This document shows, piece by piece, positions 1 to 16,855 of a stretch of 64,000 nucleotides of DNA (position 1 is the stretch's first letter; each line of letters begins with the position of its first letter). The stretch lies in the IMG/VR virus record IMGVR_UViG_2582581306_000002, positions 1 to 64,000 of that record; one strand, 5' to 3'. This stretch comes from a virus (taxonomy: Duplodnaviria; Caudoviricetes). The notes beneath the pieces are model-generated. The model ran no database searches. It was not told the DNA's origin and worked only from the letters and a program-made list of their open reading frames with translations. Made by a program: the position numbers and the translations under genes.

Positions 1-1032
1 TTAGCGCACGACACTCTGGCGTTTGGCGTATTCGACGATGGAATTTGGCGTCAGCGGGTTCTGGTCGACGAGGATGGCGTCGAAAGCCGTCTCGGAATCG
101 CTCGCGCGCGCTTCGACATAGGCGGCCGCATAGGCCATGCTGCCATCGGGCAGCGGGATGTATTCGGGCCGCTCCCTCGGGATGGGTCCGATTTCCGGCA
201 GCATGGCAAACGCATCGAGTGCTGCCGAGGAAGCTGACGGCGTCTCGGTTTCGGCAAGGGCCGTCACCGGCACGCCCATTTCCATGTTCGATTTGGATGG
301 GATCGTCAGCGTGCCGAGATTGCCGGCCTGCCTGCGCAGCGGCTCGTTCGAAGCGACCATCACGCCAGTTGCGATCTGGCCTTCGGGGAATGCGTTCGGG
401 GTGCGGTCGCCCTTCTTGACATAGGAGGCCATCAGATAGGGCATGTCATTGCCCTCGAGTGGCGCCTTGCCGATATACTGTACGCGAACCTTGGCGCTGC
501 CCTTGCGCTTCATGTCAAGGAAATCGGCTGTCTTGGAGGAAACGTCGATGATGCGGCCATATTCATAAGGCCCGCGATCATTGACGCGCACGACGACCGA
601 AGAGCCGTTTTCGAGATTGGTGACGCGAGCGTAGCTCGGCAGCGGGAATGTCGGGTGGGCGGCGGACAGGTGATATTTGTCGTAGACCTCGCCGTTTGCC
701 GTCAGGCGGCCGTGAAACGCCGAGCCGTACCAGGACGACATACCGGTCTTGTTGTAGCCGAAGTCCTCTTTCGGCTGGTACCATTTGCCTTTGACCTGAT
801 AGGCCTTGCCGACCTGATAGCGGCCGCCGCCCTTGGGAATGTTCTTGCCATCGGCAACGCGCGGACTGGCCTTTACGCCATAGATCGACTCGGCGAAATA
901 TTCCTTGCTGCGCGGCTTGTCCTTTTTGACGCTGCCCGTCGATCCGCACGCCGTCAGCGCGGCGCAAAACATCGGAATGGCGGCAATACGCAATCCTTTG
1001 AACAGAAGAGCCGCAGTCTGATTGGATGTCAT
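1..1032 (-). CDS. rlpA: Septal ring lytic transglycosylase RlpA-family lipoprotein (host gene)
   Basis: Lipobox LTAC; DPBB motifs SWYG..FHGRLTANGE, SAAHPTFPLPS, VRVNDRGP, RIIDVS; start codon uncertain. Confidence 0.93.
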   Translation of the reverse strand: MTSNQTAALLFKGLRIAAIPMFCAALTACGSTGSVKKDKPRSKEYFAESIYGVKASPRVADGKNIPKGGGRYQVGKAYQVKGKWYQPKEDFGYNKTGMSSWYGSAFHGRLTANGEVYDKYHLSAAHPTFPLPSYARVTNLENGSSVVVRVNDRGPYEYGRIIDVSSKTADFLDMKRKGSAKVRVQYIGKAPLEGNDMPYLMASYVKKGDRTPNAFPEGQIATGVMVASNEPLRRQAGNLGTLTIPSKSNMEMGVPVTALAETETPSASSAALDAFAMLPEIGPIPRERPEYIPLPDGSMAYAAAYVEARASDSETAFDAILVDQNPLTPNSIVEYAKRQSVVR

Positions 1033-1462
1033 GTGCCCCACAATCGCAATTCGTAAAAGCCGTCGACGGGTTTCTCTTGCGCATGCCCCCACGCGAAAGA
1101 ACCGGTGTCACGAAACGTAACAGTCGATTAATCATGACAACAACGTGGCGAAATTGCGAATGGTTAACCGTGCCGGAACGGAACAATTGGAGTTATGGTT
1201 TATGAATGGTTAATATTGAGGCGAGATGTCCACGGCGGATTGATCCGTCTGCCTCTCGAAAACGCATCAATATAAGCCATGGAAGTGCTATAGCATCCAC
1301 TTAGCAAACATATTCGATAATGTTGCAGCTGATATCGACAACGGTCCCATCGGCATCGCGGATAAACACAGAAATATACTGCCGGTCTTGTGGCACGCAG
1401 ACGACACTATTGATCTCCCCAGCATCCGCATATGCGGCATCCTCTGGGACTGACTCATCCTT

Positions 1463-3394
1463 TTAGGGACTGCGGAAGCGGTTGACGTTCCCAATCCGCA
1501 AGCTATAAAGCGTGCCCTGACGGGGCTGACGACTAGATGCTCGCCGGGGAAAACCGCCTCCCCGCCGAAACGGTACTGCCGCACAGCCTGTCGTAGTGGA
1601 AGAGTGTCCGAGTGGTTTAAGGAACCGGTCTTGAAAACCGGCGTGCGGGAAACCGTACCGTGGGTTCGAATCCCACCTCTTCCGCCATCTGCGTACATAC
1701 CTACGAACCCCTGGACCAAAAGATTGTTCGGCAGCGGTTGTGTCCAAAATTGCTTTCCGCAAGTCTTCATCGCGGCCGCAAATCATTATAAATCGCTCTC
1801 CCACCACGATGCTTTCGACGATTGTTCCAATGTAGATTTTCGAGATCGCCGTATTTTCCCCAAATATGACATCCTCCATTTCCGCTCTGAAATACGCAAT
1901 GCGCTCAGGCGTAATCTCTTCGAATTCCGCGTCGTTGGAGAGGGCTTCGGATAAGAGGGTGCGCGTGGTGTCCAGTTTGGTGCATACACGAATTAGTTCT
2001 GCCTGAAAAACCGGTTGAGTGTTGATCAGCGGCGCAGTTTTTGCTGCCTCTAGCAACCCCCGCAACGCGGACTCCGCGGAGCTCACCTGGTCTCGAAGCT
2101 CTGGAACCTGGCCCGCCGCATCTTGGCGACGTAAAACCCACCTTTGTTGCAGCTTGGTCAACAATTCGGACAGCCGCTCTTCTTTAAGCACGGTATCTCG
2201 AATTGCTTCGCGAATGGTTTTGTCCAGTTCATCCTCTCGAATCCGAGGACCACTGCATTTTTGTTGGCCTCTCGATTCACTGCTGCATTTGTAGTAACGA
2301 TAGACGCGGCCACCCTTTCCAGTACCAGTACCCAAGGTCATAGATGCACCGCACTTGCACTTTGCTAAGCCGGTCAACAGCATCGGACTGCTCATCAGTC
2401 TGGACTCGCCCATCTTTGGGTTGCGAACTTCCAACGTTTGTTGAACGGCATCGAACTCTTCACGAGTAATTATTGGGGGCGCTTGGAGGGGAAGTGGGTC
2501 TTGCAGCTCTTGATAGTCCGTCTCCTGGGCGCTTACTCCCCAGTAGTAAACACCGTAGTAAACGGAGTTCGTAAGCATGCGATGGATAGCTTGGATACTC
2601 CATCGGGCACCATTTCTGGTCCTAAAGCCGCGATCATTTAACCATTTTGCGATTGCTTTGACTCCCATTGGAGCCGAGTTGCCATCGCCACAGCGCACAA
2701 ATGAGAAAATCTTCTCTACCAACTGGCTCTCGTCCGCAGCCAGGGCAAGAACCTTCCGCTGCGCGTGGTCGCTTGCTGGGATCAGCTTGTACCCGTAAGG
2801 AGGGGGACTTCCTGGCCAATACCCTTGCATGACCATTTTTCGGCGAGCACGTATTGAATCAACGGCTGAGCGTTTAGAATGGAATTCGTCGAATAACGTA
2901 GTGACCCTCTTTGCTATCCACCCGCCAACATCTTTGGTGAAAGTTTGTGAAACCGCGAGCACCTCGATATCTAGCTCATGCAGAATTTGCTCGCACCTTT
3001 GGTAATCAGATGACGAGCGCGCGAAGCGCGACGTGTTGTGGACGAGTATCTTATCAAACGGCTTCACCTCAGCCTGCGCATCCATCATCAGCCTTCGGAA
3101 CGCCGAACGAGCGGTGGATTTCGCAGAAACGCCAGGTTCAACGTATATCGCAGCCACCACCCAGTCTTTAGACGCGCAAAACTTCTCTAACTGCTCTTGC
3201 TGATCTGGGATGGAGAGATTGCTCTCAACGCTCTTCTCACCGGAAACGCGAAGATAAAACGCCGCCCTTTCCACGCGTGGCATCGGTGGACCAATGTCGG
3301 CGTCTGGCCTTGAGAGCCTCCTACGCCTCTCTGCGGTTGTTTCCCTATTTCTTTTTGGGGGGAAGATGTCTCCGTCGCTCAATTGTCTGGCCAT
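1463..3394 (-). CDS. Large serine recombinase (resolvase, recombinase, Zn-ribbon, coiled coil); ORF reads through att into the tRNA antisense strand
   Basis: YLRVS catalytic motif, PPYGY, LLTGLAKCKCG, YYKC; AGGAG SD before ATG 3394. Confidence 0.92.
   Translation of the reverse strand: MARQLSDGDIFPPKRNRETTAERRRRLSRPDADIGPPMPRVERAAFYLRVSGEKSVESNLSIPDQQEQLEKFCASKDWVVAAIYVEPGVSAKSTARSAFRRLMMDAQAEVKPFDKILVHNTSRFARSSSDYQRCEQILHELDIEVLAVSQTFTKDVGGWIAKRVTTLFDEFHSKRSAVDSIRARRKMVMQGYWPGSPPPYGYKLIPASDHAQRKVLALAADESQLVEKIFSFVRCGDGNSAPMGVKAIAKWLNDRGFRTRNGARWSIQAIHRMLTNSVYYGVYYWGVSAQETDYQELQDPLPLQAPPIITREEFDAVQQTLEVRNPKMGESRLMSSPMLLTGLAKCKCGASMTLGTGTGKGGRVYRYYKCSSESRGQQKCSGPRIREDELDKTIREAIRDTVLKEERLSELLTKLQQRWVLRRQDAAGQVPELRDQVSSAESALRGLLEAAKTAPLINTQPVFQAELIRVCTKLDTTRTLLSEALSNDAEFEEITPERIAYFRAEMEDVIFGENTAISKIYIGTIVESIVVGERFIMICGRDEDLRKAILDTTAAEQSFGPGVRRYVRRWRKRWDSNPRYGFPHAGFQDRFLKPLGHSSTTTGCAAVPFRRGGGFPRRASSRQPRQGTLYSLRIGNVNRFRSP
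1598..1687 (+). tRNA. tRNA-Ser (TGA), integration target
   Basis: GGAAGAG/CTCTTCC acceptor stem, anticodon loop CTTGAAA, long variable arm, GGTTCGAATCC T-arm, encoded CCA. Confidence 0.97.
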
Positions 3395-3504
3395 GGCGAA
3401 CACTCCTGAGAACTGGTAACCGGACCTCAATCGCTCACGAGGTCTCGGCAAGCTTTAATTGCTCGAACTTGCAGGCAATCATCGTGTGGATGCCGATCTT
3501 TGAA

Positions 3505-4233
3505 TTAAGGCTTTTCAATAATCTGTTGAACTTCGTCGAACTCTTCTCGAGTAATTGTCGGGGGAACGTGGAGGGGAAGCGGCTCTGTACTTACACACCA
3601 GTAATATATTCCGTAGTAAACGGAGTTTGTAAGCATGCGATGAATAGCTTGGCTGCTCCAGCGTGATTGATCTCTGTTTCGAAAACCATGGTCATTCAAC
3701 CAAACGGCAATCGCTTGGACACCCATTGGAGCCGAGCTGCCATCTCCGCAGCGCACAAATGAGAAAATCTTCTGAACCAACTGGCTCTCGTCCGCAGCGA
3801 GGGCAAGGACCTTGCGACGCGGGTTGTCATCCGCCGGGACCACCTTATACCCGTATGGAGGTCTGCCGCCTGGCCAATACCCTTCCATGACCATTCTGCG
3901 GCGGGCACGCATCGAGTCCACGGCTAATCGCTTAGAATGGTATTCATCGAACATCGTAATGACTTCATTTGGCAGCCAGCCTTTGTCCCTACAAAATTTC
4001 TCGAGCTGCGCTTGCTGGTCCGGGATGGACAGATCGCTTGCAGCGCTCATTTTACTTGAAACGCGAAAATAGAGTGCAGCTCTCTCTACACATCGCACAG
4101 GTTGACCGCTCTCAGTGTCTAGTTCCGACAGCCTTATCCGACGCTCCGGCGGTGCTCCCCTTTCTTTTCTTGGGGGAAAGATTGCTTCGTCTCGTTTGGA
4201 GCCAGCAGCTCCCTTGTTCACTTTCCTGGGCAT
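3505..4233 (-). pseudogene. Internally deleted, C-terminally truncated paralog of the adjacent serine recombinase
   Basis: Collinear high similarity (LSIPDQQ.QLEKFC, KVLALAADESQLV.KIFSFVRCGDG, QAIHRMLTNSVYYG) with in-frame gaps. Confidence 0.8.
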
Positions 4234-4586
4234 AAGAATCCTCCCGGTGGAACTGTTGTCATGGAGTTTTGGGTCGCTAGCATTCAGATGTCGACCATGC
4301 CTCACTGCCTCACGGCGGTGAAATCGTTACGGGGGGCGACGGCTACGACAGTGCGCCTCTTGGTCCATCGATTGGCCACTACTTCTGAATAACACCTCGA
4401 GCGCGTCGATTTCCGCGCGTAAGATACACGCCACCGCACGTCCTGAATGTACTTGGCGAAAGTCACGCATCCGAAGGGTGATCGCTTGCGCACGGGTCAC
4501 GCCTGCCGCGAACGAGACCTTGTTTTAGCAATGGTAGGTTTTGCGATGGGATGTCGGCCGAATGATTTCGTCTATTCGGAGGGCAA

Positions 4587-4770
4587 ATGGAGCGCAGGCT
4601 TGCCGCTGTGATGATTGCCGACGTGTCCGGCTATGGACTACACAGCCAAGCCGACGAGGAAGGCACGCGCGGCCGCTTTCAGGCCGATCTGCACGAGCTG
4701 TTCGAACCGAGGGTTGCCGCGCACGGTGGACGGTTGATCAAGACCATGGGCGACGGCCTCCTGGTCGATC
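4587..4770 (+). pseudogene. N-terminal fragment of class III adenylate/guanylate cyclase
   Basis: ERRLAAVMIADVSGY...GGRLIKTMGDGLLV, then similarity is lost. Confidence 0.75.
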
Positions 4771-5398
4771 CGTCGGTTTTGCAGACACCAGACTGGGGAG
4801 TTTGGCTTTCTGTCAGCCATCCGGGAGGTCAAAATGTCGAAATCACCCCAGTGTTCCTGCGAATCGTTCCGGCCAACGCTCGCGTTGGAAGACTTCCGTT
4901 ATGAAGTCAGAGCGGCGAGCTTATACGATTGATACCGGCGTGGTATGCCGATGCTGGCCCAATCTCGATCTACTACGCCAACCGTACCTTGCTACCGTCC
5001 AAGACAAGGGTGTTCATCGTTGCCGATCGCGTTGGCCGCGTCGGAAGAGGTTCTTTCCGGTAAAGCGCAGCGCCGGGCTGGTATGGACCTCTGGGGTCGA
5101 CACTACAACAAATATGACTTCGGTAGGATTTCAATTCTGTCGAAGTAGCCGTAGGAGTTCAGCATTCGGTTTGCGCCCATGTGGACGCGAATTGCTTCTT
5201 CGGTGGCCTCCAACTTCAACGATCAGAATGTGATCCGTAAGCGGTGTCTCGCTCGCACCTTGGCCACAATGCTTCAGCCGTTTCAAAGACTGCCGCGAGC
5301 ATCTTGCGGGAGATGTGCCTGAACTGCGGTTATTGCTGTACGGCAGTACGGCATGTGGTCCGACTCATAGCTCAGGATGACGCGATCCGGCGTATTCA

Positions 5399-6256
5399 TC
5401 AGTCCCTGCATCTCGGTTCGTCGCAATCTGATGTAACCCTTAGCGAGTAGTGAGGCAACGACCGACTTGGTTGATTATTCGCCAATGCCGCCGCGAACAT
5501 CGTCTTTCCGGTTCCCGGACGTCCGGAAAGCAAGACCCCGGTGTCGACAGCGCTCCACGGGAGGATGCCCGCCTTGTAGTCGGCGAGGTCCTTCGCAAGA
5601 TTGGTTCCCCATTCGAGCGCAGGTCCATAGCCATGCATGTCGGCAAGCGTCGGCCACGACGGCTTTGCGACCTCTGGGACGGGTTTCGCCGACCCGCGCG
5701 GATGACTCCGCAATCTCTCCAAGGCAAGCATGGGATGACGGCGATCCTGGAAAGCCTTTACCAGTCGTGGCCAGGGTTCCGAAAGGAGCATTTCAACGTC
5801 CCGGCCAGAAGGTGGCAAACCGGCACGACGAAGCGCAGCCTCGGCATGCCTTCTCGTTCGCGGCACTAAGTCGAGGACACCATCACAGAACAGTTTATCG
5901 TCGTCACTGAGAATGTATTCAGGCGGCGCGATGAAGATCGCTCTGTTATTTCTATGAGCCTCCATTTCATCGCGAAATGACCGATCCTTCCATTCGTAGG
6001 CGTAGGATGTGAACTCCCGGTGCATCCAGATACCTGCGGCGAAAGCCTCCACCGCTTCCGCATAGACCGGGTGGTAGAAATCATCCCGGGCCCGAAGGGT
6101 CACGATGAATTTTGAGTTCGGTTTATTCCAGACTCGGAGTGATGCCGCGACCCCGCAGTACGCCATGAAGACGGGCAACGTGACGGTCGTGTTGCGGACC
6201 TGCGACTCCGGCTTCCAAGGCACACGAATACGTTTGTTGCAACCTGTTGTCGGCAT
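5399..6256 (-). pseudogene. Truncated AAA+ ATPase (FtsH-like family) ending just after Walker A
   Basis: LADMHGYG...GVLLSGRPGTGKTMFAAALA; no Walker B follows. Confidence 0.7.
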
Positions 6257-6427
6257 CGCGCTCTCCTAGAATTTCAAGGTTCCGAACCGCAGCGATCGGA
6301 ACTGATGGCTCCGTGATTCGCCTCGGCCGCAAACTTTAAATACGTCGATTCGTACATTTTTCAGAGTCTTTTTTTCATACGGTACGTATTTATTGACTCA
6401 AATGACGGAAACCGGTCTGTCATCGGC

Positions 6428-6712
6428 ATGGCGACGTTGTTGACGGCTGATTTGATAAGGGCGGCCCGGGCTCTGCTCGGGTGGAGCCAGCTCGACCTCG
6501 CGCACCGGTCTGGCGTCTCGCAAAAGGCGCTTAGCGATTTCGAGCTGGAGAAGAAACCGGTAACCGCCAAGGCGAGCGAGAAGCTGCGGACGGCACTCGA
6601 ATCCCACAAGGTGCAGTTTATCGCCGTGAACGCCGCCGACAGCGGCGAGATCGTCGGGGGTGGCGTCCGCTGGCGTCCGGAGCCCCCCAGCTTGGACATT
6701 AAAATCCTCTAG
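6428..6712 (+). CDS. XRE-family HTH regulator
   Basis: IRAARALLGWSQLDLAHRSGVSQKALSDFE. Confidence 0.88.
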   Translation: MATLLTADLIRAARALLGWSQLDLAHRSGVSQKALSDFELEKKPVTAKASEKLRTALESHKVQFIAVNAADSGEIVGGGVRWRPEPPSLDIKIL

Positions 6713-6975
6713 CCAGCCACCGTGCGGAAACCGCGTCGTGGCGGATATGTCGCCACATTCCACGCGCAGGTGGACCTCACAGCCAAGGCAGTCGAACGTT
6801 CTGCGACGAAACCGGAACAAAGGAAGCCTGTGACCTGCGTCTGATAGCTCTCTGTCGTAGATAGAGCACTCTTGCCGGGGACGATGCCAGACCCGACAAA
6901 TGGGTTACCATCGCCTCTGGGTAAACGGTGGCTTCAGTCATGCCATCCCGGCATGCTCAAATGACCTGGCCGCCT

Positions 6976-7191
6976 TCATTTTTTATTGCCCAGTTTTAGT
7001 ACGCGATAAACTGAGGTTTTCCCAATGCCGAGCTTGCGGGCAATTTTCTTGCCGCTGATTCCTTTCTCATACATGGAAACAATCTCCTCATAACGAGCAT
7101 GAACTAGGCTTTTCTTTCCGAGGGAGCTCCGTAATATCTTGATATTCCACGATGTTCCAGGGTTCGTATTATTGTTCCGCTTCTCCCGCCA
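6976..7191 (-). other. Start-less reading frame encoding a Hin/resolvase-type HTH; predicted C-terminal part of the recombinase in the excised circle
   Basis: IVSMYEKGISGKKIARKLGIGKTSVYRVLK; begins with a TGG codon on the att CCA, as does recombinase codon 570 at the tRNA CCA. Confidence 0.65.
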
Positions 7192-7267
7192 GAACTTCAG
7201 CCTATCGCGTTGAAAATATTCGATGATATTTACTTCATAGGCGCCCTTCCCCACTTTTATCCCCACT
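7178..7267 (+). repeat. att junction (copy 1): degenerate tRNA 3' end, ~40-bp element left end, and tandem CCCCACT arm-type sites
   Basis: CCGCCAGAACTTCAGCCTATCG.GT(T)GAAAATATTCGATGATATTT recurs at about 16299-16343. Confidence 0.85.
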
Positions 7268-7478
7268 GCATTTTTTGCTGCTGCCGGCGGATTTCCAGCA
7301 GTTTTAGCGCTGCTCTCGGCTAGTCCACGTGACATCGTGCAACATGCCGACACGTGAGCCGTCTGGGAAAGCGGGGATAACCCCTGTGGATTTCCACTAC
7401 CGTCATCAAACGGTCGCTTTAGCCGTGGGCGAGTGGAGCAGTTTAGCTGCTTCGACAATCCATCGGAAAGAGGCGGCC

Positions 7479-9187: not shown

Positions 9188-9615
9188 AGGCGCTCGATCA
9201 GAACTGACGCAGTTCCAAACCAAACTTGTCACCGTCACGATCGGGGCGTACATTGCCATCAGGCTGTCCCTCGCGCTGTTGACCACGGATGTACTGGCAG
9301 CGGCGCGAGGTGACCACGAGAGGTCGGGTTTGCCCGGCCTTTTTTGTTGCTGTGACTTCCGGCTAGATTTGACGAAACACCTCGTCACTTACTGCTGGCG
9401 TGGTTATGGATCACCTCGTGGATGGAGAACGAGCGGTTCCAAAGGAATACTTGGGGGTTCCTTCTGCGCCAAGTGGTCGGTTACTTGACATTGCTCCGGT
9501 GCGTATCAACATTCTGAAACAAAATAGTTGTTGTTGAGTCGGCAAACTTGGCTCAAAGCATGAGCTTTATATTCTGCGCTGAACGATGCGCCCTCGTCCA
9601 AAAGAAGGAAAGCAT

Positions 9616-10207: not shown

Positions 10208-10894
10208 ATGAACAGTAGATATCTGGCGATCGCCGACATCATCGGCAGGGTCTGCATCTGTCTCTACTTCATCCCAGCGATGATAACGCGGGTGACATTT
10301 ATCCAAGATACCTTTGCTGGTGACACATTGGCGTCCATCGACATCGTAACGGTAGTAGCCAAAGTGGCTTCCTTGCTTTTTCTTGGGATGATATGCGTTG
10401 CCGCGATAACACGTGTTCCGCCGATCCGCTCGGCTGAAAGCGCGGAAGGCTACGTTACCGCGATGGCGGGAACGTTCATCTTGGCTGCGCTGGTCGGGTA
10501 TTTACCATCGGCGGATATCTCCATTTCTACCCGCTTGATCGCACTGGCCTTAACAACCATCGGTCTTCTGGCATCAGCCTATGTGCTGCTGTTTTTAGGG
10601 CGCGCGTTCAGCATCATGCCTGAGGCACGAGTGCTGGTTACCAGTGGCCCCTACGCCATCGTGCGTCACCCGCTTTATCTCACAGAACAAATCATGATAA
10701 TTGGCTTCATCATCCTCAATCTGTCGATCTGGTCGGTGTTGCTCGGCGTCATCCAATTGCTTCTGCAATTCCGGCGCATGGTCAATGAGGAGCGCGTTCT
10801 CCGAGCCGCATTCCCCGAATACGACACCTACGCGGCAGCAGTGCCTCGCATCGTCCCGTTCATGACCTTCAGAAGACGGCAGCCCGCGGTGTGA
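10208..10894 (+). CDS. Isoprenylcysteine carboxyl/phospholipid methyltransferase family membrane protein
   Basis: LVTSGPYAIVRHPLY and EERVL..AFPEY..Y motifs. Confidence 0.85.
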   Translation: MNSRYLAIADIIGRVCICLYFIPAMITRVTFIQDTFAGDTLASIDIVTVVAKVASLLFLGMICVAAITRVPPIRSAESAEGYVTAMAGTFILAALVGYLPSADISISTRLIALALTTIGLLASAYVLLFLGRAFSIMPEARVLVTSGPYAIVRHPLYLTEQIMIIGFIILNLSIWSVLLGVIQLLLQFRRMVNEERVLRAAFPEYDTYAAAVPRIVPFMTFRRRQPAV

Positions 10895-13643
10895 ACCGGC
10901 TGGGCCTTTGGTCACGCACAGCCCCACAGACGCGCGTTAGGCCTTGGCCGGTACTCGACACCGGAAAATCGCCGTGGAAGTGGAAGGTCATAGGAGCGTG
11001 CACGGTGGTCTTTTCCTTCACGCCCGCACCGCCCCGACCATCAGAAACCCGGCTGTCGTCGACGATGATCACCCGCTCGGAGTTACGCTTGAAGAACTCG
11101 ACCTTCTGGTCCTCGCCCGGCATGATCTGGCCGCCGGTAGCGAAGCCGTTCAACCGGGCTTGCTGTTGCTGAAGGAATGTCCTGTAATCCCCGATGATGC
11201 TGGTCTCGATCGCGACGGCATAAGGGTTTTTGCTGACCTGCATCAGGTTGGCATAGTCGAACGCGCCGCTACCATTGAGGCTTCCTCGGTTGAAATTTCC
11301 CGATGCACCACCACCGCTATAGCCGCCACCCCTGCTGCCGCTGGAGGACGAACCGCCGGAACGAGACGCCACCGACAGGCTACCGATCGACGACTTGACC
11401 GCGTTCAGGCAGCCAATGATGGTCTGCGTATCGCTTTCCATCGTCGCCATGTAGGGGGTCTGGAGGCGCAACTCGGCAAGGATCGAATAGAGGTGATCCT
11501 CCATCAGGGACAGGGTATCCCGACCGCCCGACAGGATCGACGCGGTGGAGGTGGCATTGGTTACATGCCCAGAACCGGACATCGTGACCAGTTCGGCGCC
11601 CTTTTCACCAACGAGATAGGTTCCGCCACCAGAGACCGGGCCACCGGATGCGCGGGAGCCGTATAGCTCTCGAACCCAATCCGTGCCGCCGGTCCGGTTG
11701 TAAATGCGCTCACGGCTCTCAGCCGAAAGATTGGCCCACAGTTGCGCGGTCGGAAATACGCCGTTCATGCCGGTGACAGTGACCATCTTGCCGCCACCGA
11801 CGTCATACTGCTGCTGCGACATCATGGGGAGACCCCCATATTCCTGCGTGCCGGTCGAACCGCCGATCACGTTGACGTTGGCAGTGCCGCCGCCCGTCGC
11901 GCCGACCGTATACTGACGCACGCCAATATTCACCACCCTGTCGGGGATGGAAAGGATGGACTGCGAGAGCGAGTCGACGCCCATTTTCAAATCCATGGTC
12001 CGCAGGTAGCCGGCGATCATGGCGTTGATGTATTGATCGACAGAGCGCGCATCGCCGCCGACCCCCTTGAGGCTTTGGCGGACGAGTTCAAGGGCGGCAT
12101 GAGCTTGGGTAGCGGTCATGCCGCCACTGCCAAGAGCGGTCATAACCTTCTGGATACTGGTGGCCGCGTTGGCGATCGCGTCAGATGCGCCCTTGCCCAT
12201 GAAGTTATCGCCAAACACTTCGGCGACGGGCGTATTCGCTGCGTCGGCAAGTGCCTTCTGGATCTCCGACAACTCCGTTTTCATCGTGCGGAGGCGGCCA
12301 CTGGACTGCTGGAGCGCCATCAGCGCCTTGCCCTGGGCGTTCGCCGATTGCTGCGCGGTCTGCGATGCTGATTGCAGAGCTGAACCTAGTGAAGTGACGC
12401 CTTGCGTGGCTTCCGAAAGATCGATCGCTTTCAGCCTGTCCAGACTGCCGGCGCTTTCGTCGGCGGCAACCTTGGCGGCCTTCAGCATTGCGGGAAGCGT
12501 CCGCGCGGCCTTTTCGGCTTCGGCGTCGACCGCCCTCAATGAGTTTGCGAGCGCCTTCTGCGACTCCGTCGCCTCGTTGCTGACCGCGATCTTTGACAGC
12601 GCCTCGATGTATTGCAGCAGGCCGGGCTTGTTTGCCTTGGTGGCCTTGTCGAGTTCGAGGACCGCTGCCTTGAACTGATTGATAATGTTGATATTTCCAT
12701 CAAAAGCGGACGCAGGAAGATTCAGCGCCTCAGCAATTTCATTGCGCGCCGCGTTCACAACGACGTCAAGCGTCCCTTTCAACGTCTCCTGTGTGTTGGC
12801 GGCTAGCGTCGACCCGCTTGCCGCTGTGTACTCTGCCAGGCCGGTCGCTGCCTGACCATAGGCCCCCTTGAGGGCGCGGATGTTCTCCGCATGCTGTGCC
12901 AGGAGCGCATCGACATTCGCAGTGCCTTCACGCACGGATGAGAAATATTGGATCAGCGCCGCGGTGCCGGCGACCAGGCCAAGCGTCACGAGCGACACCG
13001 GGTTGATGATCGACAAGAACGCAGCGCCAAGGCCTCGCACGGCGCCGGCCGCGCCCATGGGGCCGAGCACGGCTGAAATCTGCGTTCCCTGCTGTAGCGC
13101 GATCTGGAGGGGCGACATGCCCATGGCAGACGTGACGGCAATGTCCTGGAACTGCGCTGCGAGGTTGGCGGTCCCGAATTGATCAGCACCGCCGCCATGA
13201 ACAGGGCTGCCGGCAATACCGCCGCGAAGCGTGCGACGGGCTGTGGCGGCTGAATTGAGCGCGGTGCTATAGCCCTTGATGGCCTCGATAGATGCCAATG
13301 CAGCCTGTCGCTCCCGGCCGAGCGCCGTGGCCATCTCATTGACAGACAGTGCACCGAGCCGGTGGGCTGATCGGATCTCTTCCTGTGTCTGCTTGTAGCG
13401 TTGAATGACTGCAAAGGTCGGATTGAATTTGGCGCGCAAGGCGTCCTGCTGCTGTACGAGGGCCTGGAAAGAGCCCTGCGCCGACTTGGCGGCCTGTGTC
13501 TGGGCATCGGTCAGATCCTTCATAACTGACTTGGCAGACGTGGCAGACTTCGCAATGTCGTCAATCGAGCGCGATACGACCCGACCGCCTGTCTGGGCTC
13601 CAGAGGGATCGATGACAATTTTCAGTGTCCTGGTGGTTTCCAT
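10869..13643 (-). CDS. Phage tail tape-measure-like protein; C-terminus possibly truncated
   Basis: NLAAQFQDIAV...SPLQIALQQGTQI (lambda-type TMP), RASGGPVSGGGTYLVGEKGAEL, GFATGG. Confidence 0.85.
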   Translation of the reverse strand: METTRTLKIVIDPSGAQTGGRVVSRSIDDIAKSATSAKSVMKDLTDAQTQAAKSAQGSFQALVQQQDALRAKFNPTFAVIQRYKQTQEEIRSAHRLGALSVNEMATALGRERQAALASIEAIKGYSTALNSAATARRTLRGGIAGSPVHGGGADQFGTANLAAQFQDIAVTSAMGMSPLQIALQQGTQISAVLGPMGAAGAVRGLGAAFLSIINPVSLVTLGLVAGTAALIQYFSSVREGTANVDALLAQHAENIRALKGAYGQAATGLAEYTAASGSTLAANTQETLKGTLDVVVNAARNEIAEALNLPASAFDGNINIINQFKAAVLELDKATKANKPGLLQYIEALSKIAVSNEATESQKALANSLRAVDAEAEKAARTLPAMLKAAKVAADESAGSLDRLKAIDLSEATQGVTSLGSALQSASQTAQQSANAQGKALMALQQSSGRLRTMKTELSEIQKALADAANTPVAEVFGDNFMGKGASDAIANAATSIQKVMTALGSGGMTATQAHAALELVRQSLKGVGGDARSVDQYINAMIAGYLRTMDLKMGVDSLSQSILSIPDRVVNIGVRQYTVGATGGGTANVNVIGGSTGTQEYGGLPMMSQQQYDVGGGKMVTVTGMNGVFPTAQLWANLSAESRERIYNRTGGTDWVRELYGSRASGGPVSGGGTYLVGEKGAELVTMSGSGHVTNATSTASILSGGRDTLSLMEDHLYSILAELRLQTPYMATMESDTQTIIGCLNAVKSSIGSLSVASRSGGSSSSGSRGGGYSGGGASGNFNRGSLNGSGAFDYANLMQVSKNPYAVAIETSIIGDYRTFLQQQQARLNGFATGGQIMPGEDQKVEFFKRNSERVIIVDDSRVSDGRGGAGVKEKTTVHAPMTFHFHGDFPVSSTGQGLTRVCGAVRDQRPSRFTPRAAVF

Positions 13644-13650
13644 CTGGGCC

Positions 13651-14039
13651 TCACATGATTGATTGGAGTTCGGCGAAGGTCAGGGAGACGACACCGGCCG
13701 GCGCCTGTTGGGACCATCCATTTTCGATACGGGGCCCGTACGGAAGTGCATTGGTGACCCAGACGGCGCGATACGGCGGCAGAGCCTCAATGGTGGCCTG
13801 GCCTTGGCGATGGTGGCGCCGCCGCTCTTATCGACTGCCTCGGTGACGGTCATGTCCGCGACGTTGACGGAAACATTCCAGTTGCCGCGGAACCGGCCGG
13901 ATTTGACAGGGCTCTTGAGAACAACGCCCCGCAAAGCGTGCATCGCCAGCTTCTGCACCACGGGCTTCACCATCTCGTCGGGGATGGATTCCGCGAACTG
14001 CCGGAGATCAAGCACGAATGTACCGAAGGCATCGACCAT
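13651..14039 (-). pseudogene. HK97 gp10-like tail completion protein with 1-nt frameshift near 13801
   Basis: SPVKSGRFRGNWNVS then, in the shifted frame, WVTNALPYGPRIENGWSQQAPAGVV. Confidence 0.75.
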
Positions 14040-14043
14040 GGCG

Positions 14044-14340
14044 TCAATCCCTGTACAGCGTGTCGAGGGCCTGCCGCATGTCGCGGTAGATCCCATCGAG
14101 GGTTGCGAGAGCGTGGTCAGCCACCTGACGGATTGCCAAGTGCTCCGGAGCCGCCCATGGCCGGCGGCTGAAGGCTTCCACCATGTTGGTGATTTCGGCT
14201 TTCCGGTTCCGGTAGTGCTTGACCATGTTCTTCCGGGCGGCTTTGTAGCCGGAGCCCGAGCGCACCAATTCGTCAGCTGCCGCATCGCCGAAGGCTTCAA
14301 CGCTGTGCTGAAATGTGCCCATGGCCTGGGTAGCGTCCAT
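14044..14340 (-). CDS. Hypothetical protein
   Basis: GGAGG SD, operonic position. Confidence 0.55.
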   Translation of the reverse strand: MDATQAMGTFQHSVEAFGDAAADELVRSGSGYKAARKNMVKHYRNRKAEITNMVEAFSRRPWAAPEHLAIRQVADHALATLDGIYRDMRQALDTLYRD

Positions 14341-14431
14341 GTCAAAACCCTCCCGAAAAGGGTGCGGTCCCCACCGCTGGGAAGCCACGACACATGGCAC
14401 TGAGACCGTGGAACGACGGGGACCGCATCTC

Positions 14432-14704
14432 TTAGGCCGCCTTGGCCGAAACGAGGGATTCGCAACGCGAGATTCGGAGGATTTCACGGGCGAATGCACG
14501 AGCCTCGTCAAAGGCTTTCCGGTCGCCGGCAGCGCTGCGGCCCGATTGCTCGATGTTGGCGACCTTCACCAGATAACGGTCGAAATGGCCGTCGATACGA
14601 TTGGCGATCTCCGCAGCCGGCAGGGTGGTGTTCGCGATATCCTCTATGGAGGCCATCAGCAGGCCGCGTGCGAGATCGGTGAGTTCAATGTCGGTCGTGT
14701 TCAT
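14432..14704 (-). CDS. Hypothetical protein
   Basis: AAGGA SD, operonic position. Confidence 0.55.
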   Translation of the reverse strand: MNTTDIELTDLARGLLMASIEDIANTTLPAAEIANRIDGHFDRYLVKVANIEQSGRSAAGDRKAFDEARAFAREILRISRCESLVSAKAA

Positions 14705-14706
14705 GT

Positions 14707-15603
14707 TCAGTCCTTTCCGACGTATTTGTCTTTGTAGAATTCCTTGGCGTAGTCCTCGCCTTGAAGGTGGGCGGTCTGCCGTTCCAAGGCGTAATCAACA
14801 AACAGGAGCCGCTCCTCGAAATTCATTGCCTTGATCGACCCGAATATGGCCGCAACATCGATGGGCGGGGGTGAGAAGGATGCTTTCTCAGCTTCCTTGT
14901 CGATCTGCTGCTCGATCGGCTTGAATTCAGCATCGAAGTCGTGGCGAAGCATTCCGAGGATCTCGCGAACGTCATCACGGGCGCCGTCGACGGCTCGCTC
15001 TACCGTCTTCACGGCTTCGTCGAGTTCATTCAGCCCCGCGATTTCATCGCCATAGCGCTGCTCGACAAGTATCCGGCTGAGATCGTCCCGCGTCGACGGG
15101 AGCAAGCCGGTGATTTCGACAGGAACGGATATCGCCGCTTCCACGATGAAAGGGTCACTGGCATGTCGGACGGCCTTGGTGCGCTCGTCAGGTGACAGGG
15201 TAAAAGCCAGCGCCTGACTTCCTGCCGGCGCATTTCACCGACGATGTCGGCCGGGTCATGGTCGGGAAATGGCTTGAAGGCAGCCCGGCGGCTATCGATC
15301 TCGCGACGGAACTTGCTGACCTGCTGGGCTGCAGCGCGGCGAATGTCTGGCACCGTCTCGTCAAGCGCGGTCTGCTTAAGCATGTCTTGGATGCCGGTCT
15401 TCGTGTACTTGCCCGTCTTCTCCAGTTCGGAGCGCCGGGTGCGTATCCGTTCGGGCGCGCTCTGGATCTCGCCGTAGAGCTTCTGCAGCGTGGGTAAACG
15501 GGCCGGTGTCGCCCTGATCACGCCACTGCGGCATCCACGGGCCGATCCACTTGCCCTTGTCCGAACGGTCCTTGCCGGGAAACTTCGAATCCTTATTGAG
15601 CAT
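14707..15603 (-). pseudogene. Hypothetical gene broken by two frameshifts
   Basis: Coding-like text runs through three successive frames (MLNKDSK.., LQKLYGEIQ.., EAAISVPVE..). Confidence 0.6.
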
Positions 15604-15605
15604 CG

Positions 15606-16151
15606 CTATTGCCTCCAAGCTTGAGCTTGCCTTCCGTGCTCGCCTTCGCCTTTCTGCCAAACAGGGGTGAGGACTTGGAGAACGTGCTCCGTGTCGATCT
15701 CTTGGACGGCGAGCTTGCGCAGCTTGACGCAATAGGCGTCTCCAAGCGTCAGTTCCCATTGAGCGATATGCTTGGGGTTCGACCAACTCGGTTTCATGAT
15801 AGCGATGAAAGCGTCGGCTACCGAGCCGAACGTTTCGAGCTTGATAGCGGCTCGGCGATCGGTGGCCTCCATGAATGGATCCCCTCGCCTTCCAAGGATA
15901 TCGCGGACCTCCTGCGCTTTGTGGCGCGCCTGCTTCAAGGAGATGGTCTCAGCCTTGCCGGCTTTCGCCGCGGAACCGAGCCCCATCTCGTACCGCTTTC
16001 CGCTGGTGACCCACATGAACAGCCAGGACTTTGCCCCGGTCTTGGAGACGTTGAGATAGAGCCCGCCGCCATCACTGTGCCGGCCGGCTGCGAGTTTGTC
16101 GGATGAGACGAATGAAGCCGATAGTTTGTTCAGGCCACGTGCCAAATCCAT
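15606..16151 (-). pseudogene. P4-like tyrosine integrase; arm-binding and core-binding parts only, catalytic domain deleted
   Basis: GRHSDGGGLYLNVSKTGAKSW..EMGLGS...ISLKQAR; WSNPKHIAQW; similarity stops at VLTPVWQK. Confidence 0.85.
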
Positions 16152-16290
16152 CCCCACTTCTTTCCCCACTTTGGGGCTAGGTTGAAGGCGAATTATAGCG
16201 GACGGCCATGAATTGGGAAAGACAGTTTGTTGTTTTAGTTCAATACGATAGCGGACATTCGCGGACGGCTGCGAACGGTAATTAGCCAGA

Positions 16291-16343
16291 CACCTCTTCC
16301 GCCAGAACTTCAGCCTATCGTGTGAAAATATTCGATGATATTT
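16291..16343 (+). repeat. att junction (copy 2): attR of element 2 plus left end of a related older element
   Basis: CACCTCTTCCGCCA is identical to 1674-1687; the following ~40 bp nearly match 7192-7231. Confidence 0.88.
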
Positions 16344-16582
16344 TCCGAGCAAGCCCCCTTCTCCAATTTTACCTTTACCGTTTTTTGGGTGAAATCGGAT
16401 ATTTTGCTCGCCATCGTGGATTCATCCCGCCCGTTCGCAGCATTGATCAGCGCCGTTCCTCCCCTGCCCTCATGATAACCAGTCAAGAGTAACCTTCTCC
16501 GGATGCCCGCAACCTTTTTGATGATGATGTCATTTGATTAGGGGGGTATAAAATACACGCAGGTGGTCGAAGGAGGTCTGCG

Positions 16583-16855
16583 ATGAAATCTGCAGTTTTC
16601 TTAGCGGCAGCGCTTGTGCTTGCCGCATGCACAGCAGTGGAACTCGAGCCCATCCCGGGCAGCATCACCTATGGTGGCCAGCCACGGACCAAACTGACCA
16701 AGTCGCCTGCCGGCAGCACCTTCACGCACACGTTCCACGACGAGCGCGGCGGATATTGGAGCGAGACCTATCAGATACAGCCTGACCGCTCGCTGAAGAT
16801 CATTTCGCGGCGCAGAGCCGAAGACTTCAGACTGAACGCAAACGGCGGATTGTAA
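16583..16855 (+). CDS. Small lipoprotein
   Basis: Signal peptide with LAAC lipobox; AGGAGG SD. Confidence 0.75.
   Translation: MKSAVFLAAALVLAACTAVELEPIPGSITYGGQPRTKLTKSPAGSTFTHTFHDERGGYWSETYQIQPDRSLKIISRRRAEDFRLNANGGL

Follow-up and report, generated by a model that had tools for sequence, protein, structure and literature searches.

A large serine recombinase family whose attachment site very probably lies inside the integrase reading frame, in one clade between the enzyme core and a resolvase-type helix-turn-helix

Introduction

What becomes of an integrase gene when the enzyme's own attachment (att) site lies within it? The question is raised by a recombinase gene near the start of IMG/VR virus record IMGVR_UViG_2582581306_000002 (Duplodnaviria; Caudoviricetes), of which positions 1 to 64,000 were analyzed; this whole stretch of 64,000 nucleotides is called the window. 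The gene belongs to a 5.5 kb element (1688-7191, with 5,504 bases between two TGG codons), and its frame continues into a tRNA-Ser gene. An initial annotation of this DNA proposed that integration splits the gene at its att site and that excision would swap in a C-terminal helix-turn-helix (HTH) domain from the far end of the element. For the insertion of large DNA, large serine integrases serve as the principal tools, and how their direction is controlled is a central question. Textbook accounts reserve targeting of tRNA 3' ends for tyrosine integrases. The Islander paper of 2014 describes serine integrases as not known to target tRNA genes (PMC4383910).

Herein, we describe an alphaproteobacterial family of large serine recombinases (LSRs) whose attachment site very probably lies inside the integrase frame, in one clade between a complete core and a resolvase-type HTH, a statement about anatomy. 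No stop precedes the att core in 63 of 63 tRNA-adjacent loci, and an in-frame tail is found in 9 of 11 members of one clade, which would place the deduced attP within the integrase frame.

Results and Discussion

The recombinase frame runs through the att core

The features of the window on which the argument turns are listed below.

1463..1687, minus strand: integrated-state C-terminus, W570 plus 73 read-through codons plus stop (open reading frame (ORF) analysis)
1598-1687, plus strand: tRNA-Ser(TGA), intact, its 3' part being the B arm of attL (ARAGORN)
1682..1687, plus strand: shared att core CCGCCA at attL (C71, C72, G73 and CCA of the tRNA); the same hexamer stands at 7186-7191
1688..1717, plus strand: putative P' arm, inside the last LSR codons (GVRRYVRR); inverted match to 7153-7169
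1688..3394, minus strand: LSR core, codons 1-569, with resolvase catalytic, recombinase and zinc ribbon domains (Pfam)
6976..7191, minus strand: candidate detached C-terminal exon of 71 codons, opened by the core TGG (7189-7191) and closed by the stop at 6976-6978 (Pfam HTH_7)
7160..7191, plus strand: putative P arm plus core of attR (GGGTTCGTA...CCGCCA); the same arm occurs in relatives
7192..7274, plus strand: probable former tRNA-downstream sequence, which followed the CCA before the LSR element; homologous to 16305-16386
16291..16304, plus strand: 14-base exact repeat of the tRNA-Ser 3' end, at the outer end of the whole island complex

The recombinase ORF spans 1463..3451 on the minus strand, and an ATG at 3394 gives a protein of 643 residues. 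It carries an N-terminal resolvase catalytic domain (PF00239, E 1.8e-18, residues 63-207 of the long ORF), followed by PF07508 (E 8e-20) and a zinc ribbon (PF13408, E 2.7e-13). This set of Resolvase, Recombinase and Zn_ribbon_recom domains identifies the enzyme as an LSR. A search returned 130 homologues at E<=1e-10, and the window protein was aligned with 17 homologues of 36-89% identity. Across these 18 sequences R49, V50 and S51 are nearly invariant, RVS being the catalytic motif, and the zinc ribbon cysteines C346, C348, C370 and C380 are invariant.

As the initial annotation stated, the LSR has no stop inside the element, and residue 570 is a tryptophan whose TGG (1685-1687) is the CCA of the tRNA-Ser. 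This tRNA, the sole one in the first 12 kb of the window according to ARAGORN, is 100% identical in sequence in several relatives. The read-through frame, which stops at 1463-1465, is indeed 74 codons long; it follows the antisense strand of the tRNA for the first 30 codons, and the other 44 lie in the tRNA 5' flank, not in the tRNA as had been described.

The C-terminus GVRRYVRRW-RRxWDSNPR is conserved in all 18 aligned sequences, with V563, Y566, W570 and D575 invariant. Its second part, WDSNPR, is the tRNA T-arm read antisense, and its first part, GVRRYVRRW, comprises the last codons up to the TGG and is kept down to 36% identity. The codons just 5' of the TGG hold GGGGTTCG, which mirrors GGGTTCGAA of the T-loop, and so the conserved peptide ahead of the TGG appears to double as an att half-site.

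The layout was surveyed in 80 related LSR loci from species-representative genomes. A tRNA directly adjoins the LSR on the opposite strand in 63 of these 80 loci (Ser 51, Arg 9, Glu 3), the 51 tRNA-Ser targets being TGA (16), GGA (16), CGA (12) and GCT (7). The CCA is an in-frame TGG in 63/63 tRNA-adjacent loci, and an LSR stop ahead of the tRNA was found in 0/63. Beyond the TGG, the frame reads through for 4 to 595 codons (median 35) in relatives, a spread of lengths that suggests an unconstrained read-through C-terminus. The other 17 loci, in which no adjacent tRNA was called, include contig ends, partial tRNA fragments and six non-tRNA contexts. One of them (L056) has a 35-base tRNA fragment, 2.5 kb from a whole tRNA.

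In six loci (L015, L068, L074, L076, L078 and L082) the 10 kb downstream contain no tRNA, and the frame stops 10-60 codons past the TGG; secondary sites, tandem junctions and attP-like states of clades without the HTH tail are candidate explanations. L074 breaks off at the same point as window 16291-16304, 14 bases into the tRNA end, and the four bases that follow also agree. In L031 and L044 the LSR runs into WRPRRDSNPRPQD..., which is T-arm-like and was not called by ARAGORN in tRNA mode; the target there may be a tmRNA or an odd tRNA.

Outside these genomes, viral contigs gave 24 LSR loci of 24-35% identity, all distant, and the best LSR match on plasmids had 34% identity. Plasmid recombinases of Enterobacter and Klebsiella were considered as candidates for the same layout and rejected; their HTH is a separate gene upstream of the recombinase.

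An HTH frame opens at the far end of the element

At the other boundary, the CCA at 7189-7191 is likewise an in-frame TGG, as had been reported, and it opens 71 codons that match HTH_7 (PF02796, E 2.4e-9, 37.6 bits, cut-off 23.8). The tail is a resolvase-type HTH by this match above the cut-off. Both ends share CCGCCA, and joining them gives 569 + 71 = 640 codons, in agreement with the initial annotation. In an AlphaFold model of the tail, a long helix at residues 11-32 (low confidence) precedes a three-helix bundle at 34-70 with pLDDT 80-91, whose predicted HTH helices are 34-42, 47-54 and 58-70. The best Foldseek rows were serine recombinases with a C-terminal HTH, namely Sin (2r0q), Tn3 (5cy1/5cy2) and gamma-delta/Hin (2gm4), all at E > 0.1 and not decisive alone.

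The tail frame is open in 9/9 copies identified in this work, and the other two frames hold 0-8 stops. Mismatches between copies fall mostly at third codon positions (27 vs 19 and 13 for the window and G001). The ratio of nonsynonymous to synonymous substitution (dN/dS) had a median of 0.28 over codons 15-69 (Nei-Gojobori); 25 of 36 pairs were usable, the rest being saturated, and the estimate is rough, with many dS values > 1.5. The tail thus appears to be under purifying selection in the frame opened by the TGG.

The HTH frame had been described as start-less. In the window it is not: the frame continues upstream across 7191/7192 for 169 open codons, among them 7 possible starts, and a 96-aa protein, P0122, was predicted from it by a gene caller; the description holds for five of nine elements. 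These observations bear on a different explanation, in which a small regulator gene, independent of the LSR, occupies the element edge as the HTH frame and uses its own start when integrated, and the frame agreement is a by-product of fixed att-arm spacing. The possible starts in the window are compatible with such a gene, as are those upstream of the tail in G104 and G106, and gene callers predict stand-alone proteins (P0122, and the 176-aa P0123, labeled 'helix-turn-helix domain-containing protein'). However, in 5/9 elements a stop stands 0-5 codons ahead of the TGG, with no ATG, GTG or TTG between. Tail homology starts at the TGG, behind unrelated leaders of any length, and no internal Met is conserved in the tail alignment. 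An independent regulator gene is therefore regarded as improbable.

The same arm and tail accompany the LSR in relatives

Members with at least 45% identity to the LSR were taken as its clade, which has 11 members. The homologous elements keep an in-frame HTH at the distal end, on which the proposed swap depended: a tail is present in 9/11, where the arm TGGCGG-N18-(A/T)(A/G)CGAACC or a variant is followed by an in-frame HTH tail of 70-89 aa.

Searching the genomes with the closest LSRs for the arm motif TGGCG-N12-26-(A/T)ACGAACCC gave three matches. The first (G001:C13:61180-61211) is identical to the window arm 7160-7191 at 32/32 bases, the second (G002:C18:30750-30781) has the same arm layout as the window, and the third (G003:C6:803-834) is one base off that of G002. 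The arms of G001 and G002 share contigs with the LSR and tRNA-Ser of loci L004 and L006. Read from the TGG, the G001 tail has 71 aa (WREKRNNNTNPETSWFFRVLRYSLAKAAKVHPRYEEIVSLHSQGLGGKPIARKLGIGKNPVYRVLNSIKNK) and the G002 tail 83 aa (WRIGENINTNPETMW...IAKTLGIGSSSVSRIV...), with 65% and 48% identity to the window tail and stops 3 and 4 codons upstream of the TGG, respectively.

A tail profile (A3) gave full-length matches in G104, G105, G106, G107 and G108 (E 1e-24 to 1e-28), which are exactly the five of 29 searched genomes with an LSR 45-51% identical. In all five, the tail lies upstream of the LSR on the same strand of the LSR's own contig, as checked by LSR-start sequence identity. The arm layout of G104-G107 is that of the window, and G108 has a variant arm. 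Overall, the tail lies on the LSR contig and strand, upstream, in 8/9 elements: in seven other Rhizobiales genomes it is 16-71 kb away, and in the eighth, the window, it begins 3.8 kb upstream of the LSR start. The element lengths between the TGGs are 5,504 (window), 16,337, 21,169, 21,758, 24,878, 34,593, 39,404 and 71,156 bases.

The sequence upstream of the TGG is unrelated in 9/9 elements, and homology begins exactly at the TGG. The same boundary appeared in a protein library of 1.84 billion representatives, where single-stretch matches covering the whole tail profile start their homology at WR behind unrelated leaders of 1-106 residues (P0123, P0132, P0141, P0162, P0172, P0205 and P0226); other tail proteins in the library were cut shorter by the gene caller. 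At the other side, DNA homology between the window and G001 starts at the TGG and gives out inside the final codons of the tail (197 of 213 bases), which suggests that LSR, core, arm and tail form one module while the cargo differs. No candidate recombination directionality factor (RDF) was found conserved beside the LSR or the tail, the window-G001 homology ending within the tail's last codons.

With a conserved in-frame tail at attR and no LSR stop at attL, the integrated and excised states must encode different C-termini. This part of the initial annotation, that of two integrase isoforms, stands on the frame agreement at both ends and the conservation of the tail; the part concerning direction is taken up below.

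Attachment site and element ends

The crossover is deduced to fall somewhere inside the CCGCCA core. The deduced attP would consist of the P' arm, TGGCGG and the P arm, its arms being inverted copies of CATA(A/T)(A/G)T(A/G)CGAACCC about 25 bases apart. The P and P' arms have a common inverted TCCAGGG(G)TTCGTA motif, and the shared core measures 6 bp. By hand count, the centre of symmetry falls at 7187, to which 1683 corresponds, on the C of the CG within CCGCCA (C72/G73). Compared with its place in the P arms, the motif in the tRNA arm is shifted ~6 bases toward the centre. In LI integrase structures the attB and attP motifs are offset, and the ~6-bp arm offset here recalls that offset.

To the left of 7191, TTCCAGGGTTCGTA is an inverted copy of TACGAACCCCTGGA at 1702-1715. 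The inverted match over the 45 bases left of 7191 was the best of 324 CGCCA-ending windows on both strands, narrowly, with a score of 24 vs 23 and 22. A score of 24 is reached by 0.13% of 8,509 tiled windows and is weak evidence taken alone.

The boundary at 7191 is supported from its other side. Positions 7192-7274 and 16305-16386 belong to repeat families D3 and D4, are 73-88% identical and contain an exact 16-mer in both. Because the sequence right of 7191 is homologous to that right of 16304, 7191/7192 appears to be a junction of the type 'CCA / former tRNA-downstream sequence'. About 95 bases after the CCA occur twice, behind the LSR element and behind the 14-base tRNA repeat.

Could 7191 be something other than the attR of the LSR, the HTH being debris of an unrelated small resolvase and the true end lying elsewhere, for example at 16304? 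In favor of this reading, 7181-7191 resembles the tRNA end only weakly, 16291-16304 repeats that end exactly over 14 bases, and the inverted-repeat score at 7191 leads the others in the window by a narrow margin. On the other side, this arm and tail accompany the LSR in 8 other genomes whose chromosomal surroundings differ. The 16304 end adjoins phage tail genes and a tyrosine integrase that is truncated, and nothing to its left matches the LSR P arm (score 14). We consider it very improbable that the element ends anywhere but at 7191.

The repeat at 16304 can be assigned differently. Beside it, the frame at 15606-16142 (minus strand) retains Arm-DNA-bind_3 and Phage_int_M only and is a remnant of a P4-type tyrosine integrase, which argues that 16291-16304 belongs to an older tyrosine-integrase prophage remnant rather than to the LSR. 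The sequence fits an order in which a tyrosine-integrase prophage with tRNA-downstream sequence in its attP came first and the LSR element inserted later. The downstream flanks of the tRNA-Ser in 12 relatives are all different, and one alone was informative; since this flank matches 16640-16797, the chromosome probably resumes at about 16640. The prophage remnant (10869-16304) includes a tape-measure gene at 10869-13643 (minus strand).

Scans for ends across the wider family were less productive. A first inverted-repeat scan for P arms in the 80 loci was noisy, with 13 loci matched and none trusted, and a degenerate P-arm pattern applied to the distant clade gave hundreds of chance matches in GC-rich genomes. 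Direct repeats of the tRNA end within 10 kb upstream of the 80 LSR loci were almost absent, because the elements are longer than 10 kb and the shared core is only 6 bp.

Proposed cycle and the state of the window copy

Together, these features suggest the following cycle. In the free circle, the integrase gene would consist of the 569-codon core, TGG CGG (the reverse of CCGCCA), the P arm and the HTH, 640 codons in all. Recombination with the last bases of the tRNA-Ser (C72, G73 and CCA) would split it. The core would stay at attL and read into the antisense tRNA to a chance stop, and the HTH exon would end up without a promoter-proximal start at attR, on the opposite side of the element. Core and HTH exon would be reunited by excision, which would restore a 640-aa Int-HTH protein. 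We infer that this fused protein is made and is the integrating form.

Several searches weigh against this cycle, or against its operation in the window. The initial annotation implied a circle with a 7191/1688 junction. In Logan contigs of four runs only the integrated form was seen, though rare circles are invisible in contigs; it was present in the probable source run, with low-depth fragments in three soil runs, and the contigs contained no joints at 1687, 7191 or 16304. None of 120 listed LSR homologues is fused to HTH_7. From the other direction, the long matches to the tail profile were headed by proteins with many matched stretches; ten of the many long matches among the 150 listed were scanned and had no recombinase domain, mostly matching many HTH families. 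A search for longer tail proteins returned only one 176-aa junction ORF. The intact attP motif gave 77 matches in metagenome contigs, none real and none beside an LSR or HTH tail, and an empty site for the G002 flank was not found in 60 relatives. In two clade members (G046 and G109) no tail was found, the LSR being cut by a contig end in both. Among 24 genomes with 31-35% identical LSRs, no tail was present, only weak generic HTH matches. Finally, the window copy is small and full of broken genes and may no longer be mobile.

The distribution among the more distant genomes suggests that the HTH tail is not a feature of the whole family. As these clades lack a tail, the LSR core presumably works as an integrase by itself, the HTH being an accessory gained in one clade.

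The condition of the window copy is weighed from its remaining features, which are as follows.

3505..4305, minus strand: second LSR copy, 75% and 55% identical to the LSR and broken; ~residues 80-157 are deleted internally and the zinc ribbon is absent
4306..6975, strand not assigned: cargo of short or broken frames (Pfam)
5399-6256, minus strand: cargo frame ending in the first 22 positions of an AAA ATPase domain (Pfam)
6428-6712, plus strand: XRE-type HTH gene in the cargo (Pfam)

The anatomy may be real and the window copy nevertheless a dead relic, with the read-through form as the only integrase of this strain. We regard this as a serious possibility, if somewhat short of an even chance. 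The element measures 5.5 kb vs 16-71 kb in relatives and is the smallest of eight measured; its cargo is mostly short or broken frames beside a broken second LSR, and contigs show the integrated form only. Still, nothing is missing from the LSR frame, which retains its three domains and the conserved RVS catalytic motif; the P arm matches the arm of the 34.6-kb relative at every base, and the tail frame is intact. The location of the elements at three tRNA-Ser isoacceptors (TGA, GCT and GGA) was counted as support for mobility.

The window cargo has no DNA match to the cargo of the other elements. DNA homologous to the broken LSR copy sits equally upstream of the LSR in L004 (10232-10760), a 72%-identical element. 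Given this homologue in the same place, the broken copy is probably inherited, not of recent and accidental origin; either a pseudogene or a truncated paralogue with its own role is conceivable.

Further observations concern the surroundings. The first 1.6 kb of the window (1-1600) hold a chromosomal gene that neighbors the tRNA-Ser in many Rhizobiaceae genomes (70-82% DNA identity), which indicates that the boundary of this provirus-classed record probably extends into the chromosome. At 5031-5201 and 9270-9344 the contigs of the probable source run break, word depth is ~190-201 vs ~94 beside them, and second contigs differ by a few bases; these stretches look like short repeats present elsewhere in the genome.

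Relation to known integration systems

Myxophage Mx8 reportedly integrates at a tRNA gene. Its attP lies within int, so that integration of the IntP form creates a new 3' end (IntX) and alters specificity without destroying the enzyme (PMC6070905). The LSR described here resembles Mx8, with a deduced attP inside the integrase coding sequence and a product altered on integration. In contrast, Mx8 Int is a tyrosine recombinase and the window enzyme an LSR, and the piece detached from the latter is predicted to be a folded HTH domain, a selected exon at the far end that is start-less in 5/9 elements.

In the SSV1-type 'suicidal' integrases, tyrosine recombinases described as exclusive to archaea, the att site also lies within the gene, which is partitioned on integration (PMC8371274). 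The same review argues that this split acts like a built-in directionality control in a compact, exchangeable module (PMC8371274). The window gene would share the internal att site and the partitioning on integration; in the archaeal systems the split falls within the enzyme itself, and here it leaves the catalytic and DNA-binding core undivided. The window LSR would work like the Mx8 and SSV1-type systems and is not a member of either, being a serine and not a tyrosine recombinase.

Among serine recombinases, the Ralstonia filamentous phages phiRSM1 and phiRSM3 carry one that integrates at the tRNA-Ser 3' end (PMC3816273). Their attP is the 13-base tRNA-Ser 3' end TGGCGGAGAGGGT, in reverse orientation beside int, between ORF14 and ORF15 (PMC3816273). 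The tRNA-Ser 3'-end target is thus common to both systems, with a core of TGGCGG in the window compared with TGGCGGAGAGGGT in phiRSM. The phiRSM enzyme is of the small resolvase/invertase type, its attP lies outside int, and no isoform change is described for it. The window core differs in its 569 aa, its recombinase and zinc-ribbon domains and a deduced attP inside the frame. With phiC31, Bxb1 and A118/LI the window enzyme has in common the domain order (Pfam), and its deduced att sites would likewise be short and imperfectly symmetric; unlike the window enzyme, those integrases have their own stop, an attP outside the gene and protein-coding or intergenic targets. In the open full-text literature, subscription journals and supplementary tables (e.g., those of large LSR surveys) aside, we found no account of a serine integrase whose own frame contains attP or from which a domain can be detached.

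What might the detachable domain do? By analogy with Mx8, the HTH may add DNA binding that aids attP x attB recombination, and its loss on integration may weaken or change the enzyme and so stabilize the integrated state; we favor this role over others but advance it tentatively and at less than even odds. The initial annotation had gone further, suggesting possible control of direction without a separate RDF. In such a scheme the 640-aa form, present in the circle only, would perform attP x attB, and the clipped form, present in the chromosome only, would be inert or perform attL x attR. This arrangement is judged unlikely. An RDF-like role would make no sense for a domain that the enzyme carries only while the element is free and excision has no substrate.

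Conclusion

For annotation, our findings imply that integrated integrases of this family carry a meaningless tail of 4-595 codons in gene calls, where the HTH exon is listed behind an arbitrary leader as a separate 'helix-turn-helix protein'. The family is unusual among LSRs in its tRNA 3'-end targets and in an attP that appears to be written into the last codons of the integrase. In one clade, a whole DNA-binding domain, as predicted, would be joined to the integrase only when the element is free. The directionality-switch reading, if true, would set this system beside engineered integrase-RDF fusions, and beside the archaeal 'all in one' suicidal integrases, as their counterpart in nature. 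With two isoforms and four att sites, the system would offer a natural experiment on whether a C-terminal domain can set the direction or efficiency of a large serine integrase.

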